Source: Bacteroidales bacterium (GTDB lineage: Bacteria; Bacteroidota; Bacteroidia; Bacteroidales; WCHB1-69). Taken from it: DNA of 64,000 nt. The DNA is taken from positions 67,347 through 131,346 of the forward strand of contig JBGUYY010000072.1 of assembly GCA_045222555.1 (NCBI GenBank), written 5' to 3'. The translations under genes were made by a program, and so were the position numbers. Positions 6,316 to 52,651 of the stretch are shown piece after piece. The notes below the pieces were generated by a model that was not told the DNA's origin, did not search any database, and saw only the letters and a program-made list of their open reading frames with translations. Every line of letters starts with the position of its first letter. The stretch's first letter is position 1.

Positions 6316-7563
6316 ATGAAAAAAATCCTTGTAGTTGCTGTTGGCATCTTGTTTTTCTCGGTTCCTTCTCTGAAAGCTCAAATTAATCCTAATCAACTTA
6401 ATGGTCAGGAACTCAATACTATAACGACGGCCGTTCCCTTCCTGACGATTTCTCCCGACTCAAGAGGCGGTGCCATGGGCGATATGGGTGTGGCTACTTC
6501 CGCAGATGTCAATTCCCAGCATCACAATCCGTCGAAATATGTCTTCAACGAAAACAAGTTCGGCATCTCTTTTTCATACAGCCCTTGGCTGCGTAAATTA
6601 GTGAATGACATTAACTTGCTTTATCTTTCCACCTATTATAAGGTTACTGATAACGACGCGCTCTCTTTCTCACTGCGCTATTTTTCGTTGGGTGACATTA
6701 CGTTCACCGATAATGAAGGTAACGACATGGGCAGCCAGAAACCGAACGAGTTTGCCATCGACCTCGGCTATTCCAGAAAGCTGATTGACGAGCTTTCCAT
6801 CGCCATCACTCCGCGTTTCATCTACTCCAACCTGACGGCAGGTCAGTATGTGGAAGGTGTGGAAACGAATGCTGGTATGGCCGGTGCTGCCGATGTGTCT
6901 TTGTTCTATCAGCAGGATTTCGGTTTCAAGAACAACAACAAGATGAACAGCACCTTGCGTGCCGGTTTGAATATCTCCAACATTGGTAACAAGATGTCGT
7001 ACTCTTCAGGAACGTTGCGCCGCGACTTCCTGCCCACCAACCTCAAATTGGGTGTGAGCTATACGGTTCAGTTCGACGAGTACAACAGCTTGATGGCCGG
7101 CGTGGAGTGCAACAAACTGCTGGTACCCACCAACCCGGTATATCAGACCGACAGCACCGGTCATATTATGTACGATGCGGCCAACAAACCGATTATTGCC
7201 GCTGGTAAGGATCCCGATGTGTCTGTGGCACAAGGTATTTTCCAATCCTTCGGTGATGCTCCTGCAGGTTCGAAAGAGGAGTTCCACGAGGTGAACTGGG
7301 CAGTGGGTGTGGAGTATTGCTACCGCGACCTCTTGTTTGTGCGTGCCGGTTATTTCTACGAGCATCCCACCAAGGGTAATCGTCAGTTCATCACGGTGGG
7401 CGCAGGCCTTCACTACAGTATCTTCGGTCTGGATGTGGCCTACCTGTTCACCGTTGACCAGCACCATCCGTTGGAGAACACCCTTCGTTTCACCCTTTCG
7501 TTCGACCTCAAATCGTTCGACAAGCAGGATATCAAGACGCAGGGTCGTCTCAACAAGAACTAA
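6316..7563 (+). CDS. porV: T9SS outer-membrane shuttle protein PorV (LptO)
   Basis: Start moved to MKKILVVAVGILFFSVPSLKAQ. TAVPFLTISPDSRGGAMGDMGVATS motif and beta-barrel-like alternating sequence. Immediately follows porU, the canonical order. Confidence 0.9.
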   Translation: MKKILVVAVGILFFSVPSLKAQINPNQLNGQELNTITTAVPFLTISPDSRGGAMGDMGVATSADVNSQHHNPSKYVFNENKFGISFSYSPWLRKLVNDINLLYLSTYYKVTDNDALSFSLRYFSLGDITFTDNEGNDMGSQKPNEFAIDLGYSRKLIDELSIAITPRFIYSNLTAGQYVEGVETNAGMAGAADVSLFYQQDFGFKNNNKMNSTLRAGLNISNIGNKMSYSSGTLRRDFLPTNLKLGVSYTVQFDEYNSLMAGVECNKLLVPTNPVYQTDSTGHIMYDAANKPIIAAGKDPDVSVAQGIFQSFGDAPAGSKEEFHEVNWAVGVEYCYRDLLFVRAGYFYEHPTKGNRQFITVGAGLHYSIFGLDVAYLFTVDQHHPLENTLRFTLSFDLKSFDKQDIKTQGRLNKN

Positions 7564-11487: not shown

Positions 11488-12102
11488 ATGTTTGACGAGA
11501 GATTTATGAATAAATATCGCATAGCCTCTGCCAGAGCCCAATGGCACGAATACAATGGCGGAGAGTATTTTGTAACTATTTGCACAAAAGACAGGGTTCG
11601 CTATTTCGGGGAAATTTCTAGTGGTAAAACGCGGGATGGCGCGAATGATATGAAAACAGAACCCAAAATGCGTTTGACTGAAATTGGGGAGTTTACGGAT
11701 TTGCAATTCCGAAATATTACAAAGCATTATCCGTATGCAAAAATTCCATTGTGGGTGGTGATGCCCAATCATATTCATGCTGTTGTGGTAATTGATAATA
11801 TAGATTGTAGAGACGTTGCGCCTGGTAATTGTAGAGACGTTGCGCGCAACGTCTCTACAGACAAAAACAACCATTCTATGCCGGTACATGCGCCCAAACG
11901 CAATACATTATCTGTGGTGATAAGGGGTATAAAATCTGCCGTAACAAAATATGCCAATGAAAATGGTATCCCCTTCGAATGGCAATCCCGATTCCACGAT
12001 AGAATCATACGCAATACAGAAGAAATGAATGAAATCGCAAAGTATATTGAAGAAAATGTAGCGAAGTGGCAGTATGATGAATTCTATGAGAAATCATTGT
12101 AG
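11488..12102 (+). CDS. REP-associated tyrosine transposase (RAYT, IS200/IS605 TnpA-like HUH protein) with REP1 copies embedded in frame
   Basis: 204 aa. AQWHEYNGGEYFVTICTKDR, HUH motif VVMPNHIHAVVVI, C-terminal IPFEWQSRFHDRIIRNTEEMNEIAKYIEENV. Flanked by REP1 palindromes. The internal segment CRDVAPGNCRDVARNVST is translated REP1. Confidence 0.85.
   Translation: MFDERFMNKYRIASARAQWHEYNGGEYFVTICTKDRVRYFGEISSGKTRDGANDMKTEPKMRLTEIGEFTDLQFRNITKHYPYAKIPLWVVMPNHIHAVVVIDNIDCRDVAPGNCRDVARNVSTDKNNHSMPVHAPKRNTLSVVIRGIKSAVTKYANENGIPFEWQSRFHDRIIRNTEEMNEIAKYIEENVAKWQYDEFYEKSL
11806..11859. repeat. REP1 half-site plus full palindrome inside the RAYT-1 coding frame
   Basis: Half-site tgtagagacgttgcgc at 11806-11821. 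Full copy TGTAGAGACGTTGCGCGCAACGTCTCTACA at 11830-11859. Confidence 0.9.
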
Positions 12103-47863: not shown

Positions 47864-47873
47864 CCCCCCCCCC
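47864..47873. repeat. Poly-C(10) homopolymer in the intergenic region
   Basis: Counted directly: aatCCCCCCCCCCgaaaatc. Confidence 0.9.
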
Positions 47874-47989: not shown

Positions 47990-48655
47990 TCATTTAATGC
48001 TCACTTTCACAAATACCAGATCACTCCCGCTGGCATGGAAATCCTTGCATTTCACAAAGAGTTCCCCCGTAATTGAATAGCAATACTCTAAAATATGAAG
48101 ATCCATCGGGACATATTGGTCTATTAGTTCAGGTATTGGTTCGTCTGGCTTCCAGCGGTATAGATACAAAAATGGTGGTGTGCTCAAGTGGTTTATTTCT
48201 CGCGTGGTAATCTGGTGGATGCAGCAATCAGTTGCCATTAGCCCGCCGTTTATGGCGCCTAAAGAGCGAAAAAGAGAGTCAATGAATGCTATTTTTGTAT
48301 CAACTGTAGCATCTAACTTTTTGTTAATCAATCTAAATTCTACAATGTAGGCAGCTTGAGCATGTTGAAAAGGCACCATCTTCCATTCAAGGTCGAAATC
48401 CGCTTCGTTAAAACCTTCGCTTACGAAGTATTGTTGATGCAACAAGCTGTCGATTTGCCTGCTTTCGGTTTGCGAAAGATCAGTCGACAAGTCTATACAA
48501 GAACAGAGAATCAGACTTTGCACAGCCTGATTGTAGTCTTCCTCCGCACATTTCACCACTGTCACTTGCGCATTTGAAAACACGGCTGTCAGTACTGCGA
48601 GAAAGAAAAGAATTACCCTTTTCATGTCAGATGTTTGGAAATGCTTCATTATCAT
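47990..48655 (-). CDS. Secreted hypothetical protein
   Basis: 221 aa. Signal peptide ..MKRVILFFLAVLTAVFSNAQ (alternative start 48625). No family recognised. Confidence 0.5.
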   Translation of the reverse strand: MIMKHFQTSDMKRVILFFLAVLTAVFSNAQVTVVKCAEEDYNQAVQSLILCSCIDLSTDLSQTESRQIDSLLHQQYFVSEGFNEADFDLEWKMVPFQHAQAAYIVEFRLINKKLDATVDTKIAFIDSLFRSLGAINGGLMATDCCIHQITTREINHLSTPPFLYLYRWKPDEPIPELIDQYVPMDLHILEYCYSITGELFVKCKDFHASGSDLVFVKVSIK

Positions 48656-48708: not shown

Positions 48709-48892
48709 CAAAAAAATGAGCGATGTGGCAAAGTCGTTTTGAATCTGTGATTATTTCTGCGCCAGAATCGTTATCCCAGAGTGCGGCACGCCTGAGAATA
48801 GTATCATCGTGGACTCTTTTTTCAATTGACGATATAATTCACCATCCCGAAAAACAGATGGCACACGGTGAACCAGATGGCTGCCACCACAT

Positions 48893-48931
48893 CCCGAAAA
48901 TTATGCTAATAGAATTATTCTACTAGCATAA
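48893..48931 (-). terminator. Hairpin plus U-run terminator downstream of the nuclease-like module
   Basis: TTATGCTA..TAGCATAA arms with inner TAGAAT/ATTCTA arms (48901-48931). On the minus strand it is followed by TTTT (48897-48900). Confidence 0.5.
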
Positions 48932-48961
48932 TTTTATAAAAAAATCCGTGATTTTGCGTGA

Positions 48962-50050
48962 CTATTTCCAGTAGCGGGTTTCGAGATAGGTAAGCAGTTC
49001 TTTGTATTTTTCGTTACCTTTCAAGGGGGAGAGCAGGGCTTGGGGGTCGATGATACGGAATTTTGATTTGTCTTTCAAAGTTGGGATATATTTTACCTCA
49101 ATAGCATTTTTCAATTCAGTATGAGCATCTGGAACAACCATTATATGATGGAAATCCACAGCCTTAATTCCATTAATATCTTTTTGCTTTATGATTTGTT
49201 CCATCAGAAGAGTTTGTCGCATTAATTCATAATACGGATCTGCTTTGTACAAATCATCCCATTTTTTCAAATTAGACGTAGAGTCAATCAATTTGGGATA
49301 ACGATCTAAACTCTCTTCGTTGGCTTCTTTCCCATAGTAGGTTTCCGTATATTTCCATTCGATTGGTATTAGTATATTCTTATTATCCATCGTCTGAACA
49401 TACACCAGCGCATCTACAGATGTGCAATTTGCTCCTCGAGTTTCATAATTTTCGTGCAGCAAAGTTTTGTTTTTACAAACAAACTCAAATGAGATAAAAC
49501 CGTCATCTTTGTCAATGGGGGCTTGATATACTTTCTTTATTTTCAAACCTGTTGCATTTTCAATAATGACTTTAACTGCTGCATCGTCTTTTCTTAATGC
49601 AAAAAGATGATTAAGACAATGAATTTGTGAAGAAACAAGGTGTCCAGAAGGCAAATGTTTGGATTTGTTTTCTTTCCACCATACTATTTTCCCTTGTTCA
49701 AAGTACTTCAAACAATCATCCTGAATCTTTCCTAAAAGATTATATTTCCCGTTTTGAAGAACAAAATCACGTTTCTTCCCATCAAAATAGCCTTTGTTTT
49801 GGACAATTTTACTCAAATTCTTGTCATAGTATTGTAGCTGTTTTTTACGTTCCGAATAATAGTAATCTCTTGACATGGCTCTATTTAATTTATGACTACT
49901 ATTTAGATATATTAAATCATCTTTATATCCTTTTTTGAAACAACAAAAAGAGAATTCAATAAATTTGTCTTCTCCATTTTTATCTGCAAAAGCAAAAACA
50001 AATTTAGGACTTTCATTTGTGATTTCTAATGATTTATCAAGAATACCCAA
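48962..50050 (-). CDS. PD-(D/E)xK nuclease-like protein, downstream half of the module (no ATG; TTG start or continuation of the upstream ORF by frameshift)
   Basis: 362 aa. ..SVDALVYVQTMDNKNILIPIEWKYTE.. gives D..E-x-K spacing. AT-rich. First in-frame ATG is not until codon 59. Confidence 0.55.
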   Translation of the reverse strand: MGILDKSLEITNESPKFVFAFADKNGEDKFIEFSFCCFKKGYKDDLIYLNSSHKLNRAMSRDYYYSERKKQLQYYDKNLSKIVQNKGYFDGKKRDFVLQNGKYNLLGKIQDDCLKYFEQGKIVWWKENKSKHLPSGHLVSSQIHCLNHLFALRKDDAAVKVIIENATGLKIKKVYQAPIDKDDGFISFEFVCKNKTLLHENYETRGANCTSVDALVYVQTMDNKNILIPIEWKYTETYYGKEANEESLDRYPKLIDSTSNLKKWDDLYKADPYYELMRQTLLMEQIIKQKDINGIKAVDFHHIMVVPDAHTELKNAIEVKYIPTLKDKSKFRIIDPQALLSPLKGNEKYKELLTYLETRYWK

Positions 50051-50789
50051 GTCTTTTTTTTTGTTTTAGCAATTCCTTCATTTCTTTATAGAAATCACCC
50101 ATATTATCTCTCCCAATCGTACATTCATAACTGTCAATGTGATCCACTATTCCTGATTTCCCTTCAAGAGCGTTCAGTCCTTTTTTCAATTCAATTACTA
50201 TTAATTGACCTTTATGAATGGCGATGATGTCAAAGCGAGGTTTTTTCTTGTCTTTAACAGAACCATTATATTTAAAACTGGAGTCTGTACTTACCGCATA
50301 TTCCAAATCCAAAACCACATAATCGGTTTTTTTTCGATTAGCGAGAGCTATTTGCTGCTGTTCCTGTTTCTCTGCATGAGAAATGCCAAGTTGTTCATTA
50401 AGTGTCTCTTCCCAGTCGCGCATTATTTTTTTTGCTTGATTGAAATAGCATTCTACCTTTGAATGATCTAATGGAGAATTGGGATTCATCATCAAACCTT
50501 TCCTTTGCTCTACAAGTTTATCAATTATATGTTTTGCATCAACATCACCTTCCTTAGCCTTTGCTTGTAGATGTGTTTTACGTTCCTCATTACAATCTTT
50601 GTAGAAATAGAATTCATCAAGGTAGAAACTACGAGGATTGATTTTTAGAATATTTCCTCCCTGGTAATACACATTGATGTAGTTGTCTCTGATTTGCAAA
50701 TCCAGTTCGGAATCCGACAAAATGTACTCCAATAATGGTTTCCACTCTCCTTGGAGTCTTTTCATGAAACTGTCTGACAATTTTCTCAT
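50037..50789 (-). CDS. PD-(D/E)xK nuclease-like protein, upstream half of the module
   Basis: 250 aa. ..DYVVLDLEYAV..KKPRFDIIAIHKGQLIVIELKKG.. is the classic D..E-x-K core (compare YraN EVDLIA..FVEVKTR in this same window). Ends 5 codons after an A9 tract. Confidence 0.6.
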   Translation of the reverse strand: MRKLSDSFMKRLQGEWKPLLEYILSDSELDLQIRDNYINVYYQGGNILKINPRSFYLDEFYFYKDCNEERKTHLQAKAKEGDVDAKHIIDKLVEQRKGLMMNPNSPLDHSKVECYFNQAKKIMRDWEETLNEQLGISHAEKQEQQQIALANRKKTDYVVLDLEYAVSTDSSFKYNGSVKDKKKPRFDIIAIHKGQLIVIELKKGLNALEGKSGIVDHIDSYECTIGRDNMGDFYKEMKELLKQKKRLGYS

Positions 50790-50826
50790 AACTAATTATA
50801 ATTTAATAATTTAACATCTTAATAAT

Positions 50827-51174
50827 TTAATAATCCACACCACCGGCCTGATGCAACCGACAGGGTTCTTCTGTCTCCAACAATCCCTCCTCTTCCAAAA
50901 AAGTGTTGAAATCCGTATCGAAGACGATCTCCTCCGGCAGGGAAGGAATCTTGCTGCTTCCGGCAAAAATCTCCTCATTGGTCAGAAAAGCCTGCAGCCT
51001 TTTCATCAGGTGCGACTTGTTCTCCTCCACAAGCTCTAATACCGCGTCACTCAAAAAGTCGTGAAGCTCGTTTTGCAATTGTATCTTCTGTACCTCGCCG
51101 AATGACACATCGCTGGTTTCCAAATACGTTTCCCACTGCGGCATGTCATAACACAATTCAATCATTCCTTTCAT
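50827..51174 (-). CDS. Small acidic hypothetical protein
   Basis: Start set at MKGMIELCYDMPQWE because a -7 box at 51206-51213 lies inside the longer ORF. Glu/Asp-rich with no signal peptide. Confidence 0.45.
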   Translation of the reverse strand: MKGMIELCYDMPQWETYLETSDVSFGEVQKIQLQNELHDFLSDAVLELVEENKSHLMKRLQAFLTNEEIFAGSSKIPSLPEEIVFDTDFNTFLEEEGLLETEEPCRLHQAGGVDY

Positions 51175-51205
51175 ACTGCTTTTGCTTTTTCTGGATTTTC
51201 GGCTG

Positions 51206-51213
51206 CAAAGATA
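51206..51213 (-). promoter_or_regulatory. -7 box (reverse complement TATCTTTG) for the acidic-protein gene, possibly also the nuclease-like module
   Basis: Plus strand CAAAGATA, 32 nt upstream of ATG 51174. Confidence 0.45.
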
Positions 51214-51264
51214 TAGGGTTACTATGCCATTTTGTGACATAGTGATAAAAATTTAAAAGGGCAT

Positions 51265-51915
51265 TCATTCACAGCCATAAAAACGATCCGTCTCCCATTG
51301 CATCGGATTCCGCTCAATGTATAGGGCAATTTGGTTCATTTCTTCTCTGTTCCTTACAATGCGGTCGTGATACCGCGGTTGCCATGAAAAGGGAATTTGT
51401 CGGGCATTGGCGAATTTGGTAACAGCGGATTTGAACTGTCCGATAATATGCGATAATCGTCCGCAGCGATTTGCCCTGCGTTGCATTTCGGTGTCCTTCC
51501 CATCAGACGTGGAATTGCCGATTGTAGGGCTGTCACAATGTGGCAGCCCTACATTCCCGTTAATTTGTGCGTCTGTAGGGCTGTCATAATATGGCAGCCC
51601 TACAGATGGTGGCAGCCCTACAGATGGTGGCAGCCCTACAGATGATGGCAGCCCTACACCACCATCCAAAAAAATCACCATGTGGATATGGTTGGGCATA
51701 ACGACAAATAGCGGGATCTCCGCGTCGAGGTTTATTTCACTGATTTTCATTATACATTGGCTTGCGTACTTTCCCACATCTGTCAGTTGCATTGTTCCAT
51801 CAACAACTTCACCAAAAAAATGCAGCCGATCTTTCGTGCAAATGGTTACAAAGTATTCTGCGCCATTGTAATCGTGCCATTGGGCGCGGGGGGATTTTCT
51901 GTCGTGTAGTTTCAT
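51265..51915 (-). CDS. REP-associated tyrosine transposase (RAYT-2) with REP2 copies embedded in frame
   Basis: 216 aa. AQWHDYNGAEYFVTICTKDR, HUH VVMPNHIHMVIFL, IPFSWQPRYHDRIVRNREEMNQIALYIERNP. The internal GVGLPSSVGLPPSVGLPPSVGLPYYDSPT..GNVGLPHCDSPT is translated REP2. Confidence 0.85.
   Translation of the reverse strand: MKLHDRKSPRAQWHDYNGAEYFVTICTKDRLHFFGEVVDGTMQLTDVGKYASQCIMKISEINLDAEIPLFVVMPNHIHMVIFLDGGVGLPSSVGLPPSVGLPPSVGLPYYDSPTDAQINGNVGLPHCDSPTIGNSTSDGKDTEMQRRANRCGRLSHIIGQFKSAVTKFANARQIPFSWQPRYHDRIVRNREEMNQIALYIERNPMQWETDRFYGCE
51523..51658. repeat. REP2 array inside the RAYT-2 CDS: two 31-nt palindromes plus three 18-nt tandem half-sites
   Basis: TGTAGGGCTGTCACAATGTGGCAGCCCTACA (51523-51553). 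TGTAGGGCTGTCATAATATGGCAGCCCTACA (51574-51604). GATGGTGGCAGCCCTACA x2 plus GATGATGGCAGCCCTACA (51605-51658). Confidence 0.9.
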
Positions 51916-51960
51916 TATAGTTAGTTTAGCAAAGATTATATTTCATTCATCTACAGGTTT

Positions 51961-52028
51961 TGTAGGGCTGTCACAATGTGGCAGCCCTACAATCATAATA
52001 TGGAAGCCCTACAATATGGCGCCCTACA
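51961..52028. repeat. REP2 cluster upstream of RAYT-2 (one full palindrome plus two degenerate half-sites)
   Basis: TGTAGGGCTGTCACAATGTGGCAGCCCTACA (51961-51991), then ..atatggaagccctaca and atatggcgccctaca. Confidence 0.85.
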
Positions 52029-52033
52029 GGATG

Positions 52034-52651
52034 TCATAATGCGTCAACCCCACGTTGCAGCCTCTCCAAAAATCGGGCTGCGTCGCCACCGTCCATCTGC
52101 ACGTGGTGGAACTGGAACGACACGGGCAGCGTAGCCTTGAACCAGCGCTTGCGGTACTTGCCCCACATCACCATCGGGTTGAGGAACTTGTCGGTGTATT
52201 GGTTTACCACGCAGTCGAGCTCGGTCTGGATCATGGCGGAGGTGCCGACAATCATGTAGCCGTCGAGGAAGCTGCTCTGGCACTCTTCCGCCACCCGGGT
52301 GGTCAGTTCCAGATAGTCGCGGTTGAACTGCTGCAGGTCGGCGGAGAAGGGGATGTCGCACGAGTTGATGCCGCCCTTGCGGTTGCGCACCACCACGTTG
52401 ATGGCCATCTGGTCGTAGCGGAACAGCTTGCCGCCCTCGGGCAGCAGGTAGAGTTCCTCGGTTTCGGTGGCCGCCTTGCCGATGCACCAGCACATCAGTG
52501 TGTTGAACTTGACGTGCTGCTTTTTGCTGACCTTCAGCAAGTGGCTGACATTCATCGTTTTCACCAGTGTCACCATCGGCATCGGCGCATTCAGCCACAT
52601 CTCAAAGGCGAATGCCCGATTGGTCTCTTGCGGGTTGATTTCGTGTTTCAT
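52034..52651 (-). CDS. CatA-like (chloramphenicol acetyltransferase family) O-acetyltransferase
   Basis: 205 aa. ..FQFHHVQMDGGDAARFLERLQ matches the CAT catalytic HHxxxDG motif. Length typical of type A CAT. Confidence 0.7.
   Translation of the reverse strand: MKHEINPQETNRAFAFEMWLNAPMPMVTLVKTMNVSHLLKVSKKQHVKFNTLMCWCIGKAATETEELYLLPEGGKLFRYDQMAINVVVRNRKGGINSCDIPFSADLQQFNRDYLELTTRVAEECQSSFLDGYMIVGTSAMIQTELDCVVNQYTDKFLNPMVMWGKYRKRWFKATLPVSFQFHHVQMDGGDAARFLERLQRGVDAL

Follow-up and report, generated by a model that had tools for sequence, protein, structure and literature searches.

The 64,000-nucleotide stretch of DNA analysed here (the window) comes from the Bacteroidales bacterium assembly GCA_045222555.1 (contig JBGUYY010000072.1, positions 67,347 to 131,346 of the forward strand), and this report concerns a gene on its minus strand, at 48962..50789, for a protein of two PD-(D/E)xK-type nuclease modules. 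In the window the gene is +1-frameshifted and appears as two open reading frames (ORFs), ORF1 (50037-50789, minus strand, 250 amino acids, ATG start) and ORF2 (48962-50050, minus strand, 362 amino acids, TTG start). An earlier note, made from the sequence alone, had described two separate nuclease-like ORFs in an AT-rich segment. Both ORFs and the motifs quoted for them are present where that note placed them (RFDIIAIHKGQLIVIELKKG at ORF1 residue 185; SVDALVYV and ILIPIEWKYTE, both in ORF2), and its spot counts of G+C per 60 nucleotides are exact (15 at 49981-50040 versus 35 at 52201-52260). The segment is compositionally foreign, with a GC content of 0.33 compared to 0.50 window-wide, the lowest of 621 sliding 1.9-kb windows. 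The separateness of the two ORFs did not survive; the fused product of about 610 residues that the note also suspected did. Deletion of one A from a run of nine (A9, 50054-50062, minus strand), located after residue 245 and inside the N-terminal module, fuses ORF1 and ORF2 into an uninterrupted ORF of 608 amino acids. ORF1 and ORF2 are one gene, encoding a 608-residue protein with two PD-(D/E)xK-type modules.

A search with the repaired 608-residue product found 382 relatives. Among the best 120 of these, more than 100 are 595-650 amino acids long with 100% query cover, and identity reaches 83%. The homologue alignment is unbroken over the frameshift junction, which is flanked by EMKELLKQKK and DLGILDKSLEI. 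At the site of the A-run, the DNA of intact homologues reads AAACAAAAACAAGAC (K-Q-K-Q-D) and the window has one A extra; the intact homologues P0021 and P0024 have K-Q-K-K-D, which back-translates to a run of eight As (A8; protein level only). The likely history of the break is a Q-to-K change that made a slippery A-run, followed by a +1 slip. Given that the identical A9 is found in a separate Logan assembly of run SRR25030101 (100% identity over 4,993 bp), and that the gene calls of the NCBI 454-kb contig also reflect it, the A9 is not an assembly accident of a single pipeline. All 48 of 48 invariant alignment columns are kept in the window protein, which carries no further lesion, and the ratio of nonsynonymous to synonymous substitution rates (dN/dS) against close homologues is 0.15-0.20, indicating that the break is recent.

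Beyond residue 245, ORF1 ends in a tail of five out-of-frame residues, and the break removes the fourth core strand and the next helix of the N-terminal module (N-module). The frameshift most likely abolishes this module in the window copy, and the gene is probably inactivated in this strain; slippage at the A-run could give at most a minority of full-length product. Signs of decay are also found on either side of the gene, with a RAYT/REP (repetitive extragenic palindromic) insertion upstream, and a downstream gene for a 154-residue membrane protein shrunk to a 25-residue remnant. It is unlikely that the A8/A9 homopolymer is instead a slip-strand phase-variation switch, or that the frameshift is bypassed so as to give a small, tolerable dose of a toxic nuclease. 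Bypass would proceed by RNA-polymerase slippage on A9, or by +1 ribosomal slippage of tRNA-Lys at AAA-AGA, reading exactly KQKK-DLG; -1 ribosomal frameshifting on A_AAA_AAA is out, as a stop codon closes the -1 frame (the one that A10 would give) once 11 codons have been read. The form of the lesion suits these explanations, being a single-base length change in a nine-A run with ORF2 in the +1 frame, no other damage, and all invariant residues kept, as do the presence of the same A9 in two assemblies and the A8 implied for the intact KQKKD alleles. Transcriptional slippage on runs of at least nine As is also documented in bacteria. However, an A8 variant of this strain was not found, the nearest intact homologue being only 83% identical, and the tract is not conserved, with a C interrupting the run in most homologues (AAACAAAAACAAGAC). 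The gene holds two other A8 runs, which are explained by its AT- and Lys-richness, the surrounding locus shows the other decay described above, and Bacteroidales are better known for invertase-based phase variation.

The N-module spans residues 1 to ~295 (49904..50789, minus strand), where a helical/beta N-subdomain precedes a PD-(D/E)xK-type core. Its catalytic-type residues, all on the minus strand, are D161 (50307-50309), E163 (50301-50303), D187 (50229-50231), E200 (50190-50192) and K202 (50184-50186). The idea that D..ExK motifs are significant by themselves was dropped after a shuffling test, since 81-88% of composition-preserving shuffles of these Lys-, Glu- and Asp-rich proteins contain a D..E-x-K pattern; the weight of the motifs comes from the invariance of their residues in homologues and their position in the modelled fold. 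When modelled alone with AlphaFold2, the N-module has a predicted local distance difference test score (pLDDT) of 86.5 and a predicted template-modelling score of 0.85. The modelled core is alpha-beta-beta-beta-alpha-beta (helix 139-150, strands 158-165, 185-192 and 195-203, helix 232-246, strand 258-268), and has D187 on strand 2 and E200 and K202 on strand 3, the arrangement of a PD-(D/E)xK core. The N-subdomain (residues 1-135) is modelled as two helices, a three-stranded sheet and long helices, and is not Rossmann-like. No Pfam, NCBIfam or convincing PADLOC family matches the N-module; weak matches are to Pfam Hjc (expectation value (E) 0.08) and to the PADLOC Csx1 “nuclease” model (8e-5), the latter local to the D..ExK strands. 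A profile of the module searched against 1.84 billion cluster representatives (50% identity clusters) finds 2,422 clusters at E ≤1e-3 and 1,275 at ≤1e-10. The N-module is a member of a large unannotated family, most members of which are stand-alone proteins of 280-330 residues, mostly around 300. D161, D187, E200 and K202 are present in 146 of 146 distant representatives, and E163 in 145.

The C-terminal module (C-module) lies wholly within ORF2, and comprises residues ~345-608 (48965..49756, minus strand). The earlier note could name no family for either ORF. For ORF2 this no longer holds, as it scores 123.6 bits against PF22558 (REase-ARP; cut-off 27, E 1.5e-35) and 62.1 bits against PF20796 (PDDEXK_13; cut-off 27, E 7e-17), and relatives of the module carry the NCBI and UniRef name “PGN_0703 family putative restriction endonuclease”. 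Judged by these profile scores, the C-module is a member of Pfam REase-ARP, a family catalogued by computation only. Its key residues are E435 (49484-49486), D459 (49412-49414), E477 (49358-49360) and K479 (49352-49354), all on the minus strand. E435, D459, E477 and E482 are found in 120 of 120 stand-alone proteobacterial relatives and K479 in 119, and the window protein has all of them. The hallmark residues, which are also invariant in Bacteroidales homologues, are SSQxHCLNHLF (SSQxxCxN), E435, R451-G452, T456-S457, D459, E477-W-K479-Y-T-E482 and YExxRQ (R524-Q525). Non-conservation of the D, E and K residues would have counted against the interpretation in the earlier note; these residues are invariant in 146 N-module and 120 C-module relatives (119 of 120 for K479), and the PD-(D/E)xK assignment is supported for both halves. 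In the literature PGN_0703 is found only as a landmark beside a riboswitch. No definition of the “ARP” of the family name was found in the literature either, and the CoCoNuT and NAD-ADPr papers make no mention of it.

In a full-length AlphaFold2 model built from the family alignment (pLDDT 85.7), two domains, 1 to ~300 and ~345-608, are joined by a poorly ordered linker. In confident models the D..E-x-K residues map to the second and third strands (beta2, beta3) of an alpha-beta-beta-beta-alpha-beta core. The best Foldseek match of the N-module has an E of 0.015 with template-modelling (TM) scores of at most 0.27, and nearly all of its weak matches are PD-(D/E)xK nucleases. The weak lists include Can2/Card1, Nt.BspD6I, BsmI, the R2 endonuclease, MGME1, McrC, HamA, Shedu and RecU/Hjc. 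With matches this weak, no specific structural homologue can be claimed. A sequence search of the PDB with the family profile gave spurious PPR-repeat matches only. The Can2 and Csx1 matches prompted a CARF-nuclease reading, which was rejected because the CARF domain is absent: Pfam detects neither a CARF nor a SAVED domain in the window protein.

Relatives of the nuclease were found in 224 of 185,579 species genomes (one genome per species), nearly all of them metagenome-assembled genomes (MAGs) of gut or rumen Bacteroidales. Neighbouring genes were labelled with iterated profiles in the best 80 loci, 52 of which have both modules and 28 the C-module only. The earlier view of a stand-alone, partnerless nuclease does not fit these relatives. 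A phosphoesterase, either a HAD_SAK_2 protein or a ~196-residue calcineurin-like enzyme (metallophosphoesterase, MPE), is encoded within 2.6 kb in 41 of the 52 two-module loci, and a WYL regulator gene is present in 30; the corresponding numbers for the C-module-only loci are three and five of 28. The N-terminal domain of the HAD partner occurs alone in six of the 52. The WYL(+WCX) protein directly adjoins the effector genes, in nearly all cases on the same strand. Two arrangements can be distinguished on Pfam-annotated contigs. The first has, in this order, a HAD_SAK_2 protein (316 amino acids), the nuclease and a WYL(+WCX) protein (~300 amino acids). In the second, which is syntenic with the window, a CAT-like gene and a small ORF come before the nuclease, with a radical-SAM gene at some distance beyond it. 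The components are also joined directly in fusion proteins, or found in other combinations. The HAD partner is fused to REase-ARP in P0116 and L057 and to the N-module in P0287, and the N-module is fused to an MBL/beta-CASP (RNase J-like) nuclease in proteins of ~740 amino acids (P0282, P0301 and P0355). In the Prevotella MAG L097 (3092-6305), a WYL gene, an N-module gene (hhalign probability 98.7%) and an MBL nuclease gene follow one another in that order. A divergent second N-terminal module with a D...E-L-K motif takes the place of the N-module in 15 loci. The core of this low-GC mosaic cassette of gut and rumen Bacteroidales is the two modules, fused or adjacent, usually with a phosphoesterase and a WYL protein. 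Its syntax (WYL, phosphoesterase, N-module, second nuclease and no methylase) is present neither in PADLOC v2 nor in the literature found; matches to PADLOC-DB v2.0.0 within the cassette are limited to the MPE partner (PDC-S10, 3.9e-40) and the WYL protein, and no NCBIfam model matched any component.

Seven loci (L037, L038, L040, L041 and L043-L045) have the order WYL, N-module, C-module and metallophosphoesterase (PADLOC PDC-S10), and all seven have a YspA-type SLOG gene upstream on the opposite strand. Five of them (L040, L041 and L043-L045) have a gene for a Vsr mismatch endonuclease after the MPE gene, immediately so in four, and with a Fic gene in between in L041; beside Vsr, these MPE-type loci showed no Dcm-type methylase. 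Neighbours seen across the family's loci include type I HsdM, Fic, RhuM, YhcG, Vsr, HipA, AAA_15/21 ATPases, Mrr_N and further WYL genes, a set compatible with a defence island.

The earlier note had seen no methyltransferase linked to the gene, and this extends to its Bacteroidales relatives: none was found beside the window gene, nor within ~6 kb in the 80 Bacteroidales loci in a scan at the level of regular expressions and motifs. It is distinctly unlikely that the protein is a conventional restriction endonuclease with its methyltransferase gene in another part of the genome, as part of an orphan or relocated restriction-modification (R-M) system. Such an origin is suggested by the NCBI name “putative restriction endonuclease”, and by stand-alone members in Alphaproteobacteria whose next gene downstream encodes a large N6/N4 DNA methylase; two of the three proteobacterial loci checked also encode a ResIII type III-like helicase, and in the third, on the Phenylobacterium plasmid, only a RE_endonuc domain is upstream. 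However, no credible methyltransferase accompanies the Bacteroidales genes, the only type I HsdM seen belonging to an adjacent system, and the partners that do recur are a phosphoesterase and a WYL regulator. One proteobacterial member is also without a methyltransferase.

The window carries a reduced form of the cassette, typical of one rumen clade. A tblastn search of the whole window found neither a WYL gene nor a HAD domain. The nuclease gene does not adjoin any methyltransferase, ATPase or helicase gene, its neighbours being a radical-SAM gene, a CAT-like acetyltransferase gene, a RAYT-like gene and hypothetical genes. What is retained is a small acidic ORF (50827..51240, minus strand, 137 amino acids) located 37 nucleotides upstream of the nuclease gene on the same strand. 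The ATG at 51172-51174 is its probable conserved start, for a product of ~115 amino acids. The ORF is homologous to the N-terminal ~95 residues of the HAD_SAK_2 partner, without the HAD domain (37-42% identity and E 4e-15 to 5e-18 in BLASTP against the HAD partners of L001 and L005). It had been listed as a gene remnant in the earlier note, and the view of this ORF as junk was rejected after a dN/dS test: 27 of 28 pairwise dN/dS values fall at 0.17-0.48, and the remaining one, between two near-identical copies, is 0.83. The small ORF precedes the nuclease, intact and with 23-27 D+E residues, in eight genomes that have either synteny with the window or the same HAD-less architecture. From its codon substitutions, we take the ORF to be a maintained protein rather than debris. 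The locus annotation should read one frameshifted gene and a conserved small partner gene, not two orphan nucleases.

An acidic partner of this kind could belong to a toxin-antitoxin-like or addiction module, in which the small protein neutralises the nuclease as a DNA mimic or direct inhibitor, the module being selfish or an abortive-infection trigger. The retention of the strongly acidic ORF without its HAD domain, under purifying selection and so close upstream on the same strand, fits this idea, as does the mobile and mosaic nature of the cassette. We nevertheless give it little credence, as in most relatives the domain is the N-terminus of a HAD phosphatase, and searches of Pfam and PADLOC gave no known antitoxin as a homologue.

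It is very unlikely that ORF1 and ORF2 are a naturally split, functional two-subunit system. Such systems do occur in the family, with the modules encoded by adjacent separate genes, often with ATGA overlaps, in 26 of the 52 two-module loci; furthermore, ORF2 holds the whole C-module and has an ATG (M297) at the position where natural C-subunits begin. However, the natural boundary is at ~residue 295-297 (between SHKL and NRAMSRDYYY), ~50 residues downstream of the break in the window. The break after residue 245 is inside the core, results from a 1-nucleotide length change, costs the N-module a core strand and a helix, and adds five out-of-frame residues. At the same position all close homologues (55-83% identity) have a single unbroken chain.

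The nuclease gene has a GC content of 0.32-0.375 in hosts of 0.40-0.53. When the window is compared with its syntenic relatives at the DNA level, a 5' arm is conserved that takes in the CAT-like gene and the small ORF and reaches just into the beginning of the nuclease gene. A conserved 3' arm consists of the last 100-200 nucleotides of the nuclease gene plus ~70 nucleotides, and ends near a terminator-like hairpin; DNA homology stops at ~48891 (48836 in L027). The hairpin is AT-rich (TTATGCTA...TAGCATAA then TTTT; 48899..48935, minus strand), is just past the stop codon, and was flagged as a 14-nucleotide repeat; from its sequence it probably serves as the terminator and closes the conserved 3' arm. 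Between the arms, sequence is hypervariable or unalignable. Nuclease alleles at the same site are 35-77% identical, versus 89-95% for the CAT-like and radical-SAM genes, and identity can be mosaic within a protein (P0011 is 79% identical N-terminally and 91% C-terminally, with 21% identity in its linker). Conserved arms with a hypervariable middle, mosaicism and low GC content together indicate a horizontally exchanged, diversifying cassette. The surroundings are variable, as the earlier note had said, with the RAYT/REP insertion and the loss of the downstream gene. That note would have taken conserved synteny of homologues as a mark of core genes. In one rumen clade there is indeed a fixed place for the nuclease between the CAT-like gene and the downstream region, but the alleles in it are swapped. 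Zero tblastn matches in phage genomes argue against a phage-borne or homing nuclease, and a plasmid search gave one distant match. A housekeeping DNA-repair or RNA-processing nuclease of the lineage, to which the syntenic position in one clade, the purifying selection and the Pfam naming of the partner HAD family after RNA-repair proteins could point, is highly improbable given the restriction of relatives to 224 of 185,579 species genomes, the foreign composition in every host, the divergence of same-site alleles relative to flanking genes, and the dispensability of the gene, which is frameshifted in the window and has an in-frame stop in L035.

The locus is best read as having a defence-type role. 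Signals of this kind are the presence in only 224 of 185,579 species genomes, the low GC content whatever the host, the mosaicism, the conserved arms with a hypervariable middle at one chromosomal site, the defence-related neighbours, and the match of the MPE partner to PDC-S10. With moderate confidence, and arguing from sequence comparison, we interpret the frameshifted two-nuclease gene as a reduced, probably inactive copy of a horizontally moving, defence-type Bacteroidales cassette. Several points weigh against this interpretation. Foldseek searches of the PDB and BFVD with the full-length and N-module models gave nothing at E <1e-3, the best matches being 4e-3 to 1.5e-2 with best TM-scores below 0.3. 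PADLOC-DB v2.0.0 has no match for ORF2, the full-length protein P0005, the HAD partner or the alternative N-module, and no literature was found on the function of REase-ARP, PF22558, PF20796/PDDEXK_13 or PGN_0703. The methyltransferase scan of the 80 loci used motifs alone, and the defence-island context is anecdotal, with no background control. A cellular function passed on vertically would also be compatible with the synteny within the clade and with the purifying selection on nuclease and small ORF. Lastly, the window copy is only probably inactive, as the cell could get past the frameshift or start a separate C-module at M297.

If the defence-type interpretation is right, the intact cassette would be an anti-mobile-element defence or abortive-infection module. 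Both nuclease modules are probably active, considering that complete catalytic sets are kept across very wide divergence. The two active sites would cut nucleic acid, most likely one DNA strand each by analogy with tandem or heterodimeric type IIS/IIT restriction enzymes, and given the likeness of the fused-or-split pair to these enzymes, a double-strand break made by one protomer or heterodimer would be the simplest model. Self-protection without a methylase could come from WYL repression until a signal is received, from the small partner domain, or from dependence on a feature of foreign DNA. The HAD or MPE partner may process nucleic-acid ends, as its Pfam naming (“Swiss Army Knife RNA repair” HAD) suggests and as the literature describes for HAD proteins of that class, or may destroy nucleotides, by analogy with the PUA-Cal-HAD defence system. 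Since proteobacterial REase-ARP genes are found beside a methylase and Bacteroidales ones are not, the family is plausibly one of DNA restriction nucleases, with changed partners in the Bacteroidales branch.

A more specific proposal, which we put forward tentatively and consider possible rather than probable, is that the cassette is a distinct anti-mobile-element immune system of gut and rumen Bacteroidales. In this proposal a constant N-module core would recruit interchangeable second nucleases (REase-ARP or MBL/beta-CASP) and phosphoesterases, there would be no self-methylation, alleles would be swapped between the conserved arms at fixed chromosomal sites, and the small acidic N-domain would be a docking or inhibitory subunit. 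If it is a working immune system, a methylase-free design of two nucleases plus a phosphatase would be added to the defence repertoire of Bacteroidales, which are dominant gut and rumen bacteria in which few defence systems have been tested, and a function would be given to two large families that are computational or unannotated. The interchangeable parts (a HAD or an MPE partner; REase-ARP or an MBL enzyme as second nuclease; a fused or a split layout) lead to clear predictions testable by cloning.

Other copies of the cassette are also damaged or rearranged. L035 (447-2339) has an in-frame stop in the C-module, L055 has a split HAD partner, and L048 has the inverted order C-module, N-module, HAD. 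From the damaged copies in L035 and L055, inactivation is not confined to the window.

In the window the CAT-like gene is separated from the small ORF by a RAYT/REP element of ~800 bp, which L051 alone has as well. The RAYT-like ORF (51265-51915, minus strand) has REP-like palindromes (TGTAGGGCTGTCACAATGTGGCAGCCCTACA) inside its coding sequence at 51522-51658, and also just upstream at 51960-52016. The gene contains an 18-nucleotide unit repeated 3.7 times that is translated as PSVGLP repeats (window 51265-52060); the homologous RAYT of L004 has a different internal repeat, DARGDS. A second RAYT-like copy is found in the window at ~11527-12090. In L004, the syntenic MAG nearest to the window, the CAT-like acetyltransferase gene is present twice (499-1836 and 6898-7527, 88.5% mutual identity), once beside a RAYT gene, which suggests a RAYT/REP-associated rearrangement around the locus. 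On the other side of the nuclease gene, 48831-48905 encodes the 25-residue remnant (56% identity) of the C-terminus of the 152-165-residue membrane protein that follows the nuclease in syntenic relatives, and a 221-residue signal-peptide protein (47990-48655) is found in place of the missing gene. Between the start of the radical-SAM gene (47768) and this 221-residue ORF (47990) is a C10 homopolymer (47864-47873), the window's only G/C run of at least 8, and possibly a slippage-prone tract in a promoter region.

Of the known families, PGN_0703/REase-ARP is the nearest to the C-module, which is far above the Pfam cut-off and keeps every hallmark residue. Typical members differ in being stand-alone proteins of ~320 amino acids, beside a methylase in Proteobacteria, whereas the window module is fused to a second nuclease-type module, there is no methylase, and phosphoesterase and WYL partners are found in its Bacteroidales relatives. 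Stand-alone REase-ARP genes are in operons in Methylobacterium and a MAG (L093-L095) and in the Phenylobacterium plasmid pA (L092). In L093-L095 the operon consists of a ResIII(+RE_endonuc) helicase, an optional GmrSD_N protein, REase-ARP, a ~980-residue N6/N4 methylase and a UvrD-like helicase. In L092 the upstream match is limited to a RE_endonuc domain, and the ORF for the methylase has 529 amino acids; this methylase and the upstream neighbour are missing from the plasmid's gene table. By gene content, the operon of L092-L095 is a predicted type III-like R-M system with an extra nuclease.

Two PD-(D/E)xK modules in one chain or in adjacent genes are likewise found in type IIS/IIT enzymes, which are tandem (BsmI, Mva1269I) or two-subunit (BspD6I, BbvCI, BtsI), and Nt.BspD6I and BsmI are among the top weak structural matches (E 0.08-0.3, TM <0.25). 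The difference here is that there is no cognate methyltransferase and no identified DNA-recognition domain, and one cut per strand would be an extrapolation from those enzymes. Can2/Card1 and Csx1-type nucleases are the top Foldseek matches of the N-module (E 0.015-0.15; PADLOC Csx1 8e-5), a likeness of the generic nuclease core only. In contrast to them, the protein has no detected CARF domain, and there is no CRISPR in the locus annotations examined, which did not include a dedicated CRISPR scan. As in WYL-regulated defence operons of the BrxR/CapW type (PMC4012209), a ~300-residue WYL(+WCX) protein matching PADLOC WYL models is encoded beside effectors in 30 of the 52 loci; the window and its clade differ in having no WYL gene. 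The PUA-Calcineurin-CE-HAD system, which has a PUA sensor and no nuclease and acts by depletion of deoxynucleoside triphosphates, is a precedent for HAD and calcineurin-like defence effectors (bioRxiv 10.64898/2026.01.15.699771). The likeness is one of enzyme type only, HAD or calcineurin-like enzymes recurring as the cassette partner; here the core is two nucleases with one phosphoesterase at a time.

The methyltransferase in the operon that characterises classical type II and III R-M systems is present in the distant proteobacterial relatives only, and absent from the window and the 80 Bacteroidales loci. This absence is shared with type IV systems, and neither a modified-base reader nor a McrB/GmrS-type nucleoside triphosphatase was detected in the protein or its recurrent partners. 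By these comparisons, the cassette would work like a restriction-type nuclease system that stands outside classical R-M, type IV and CARF nucleases.

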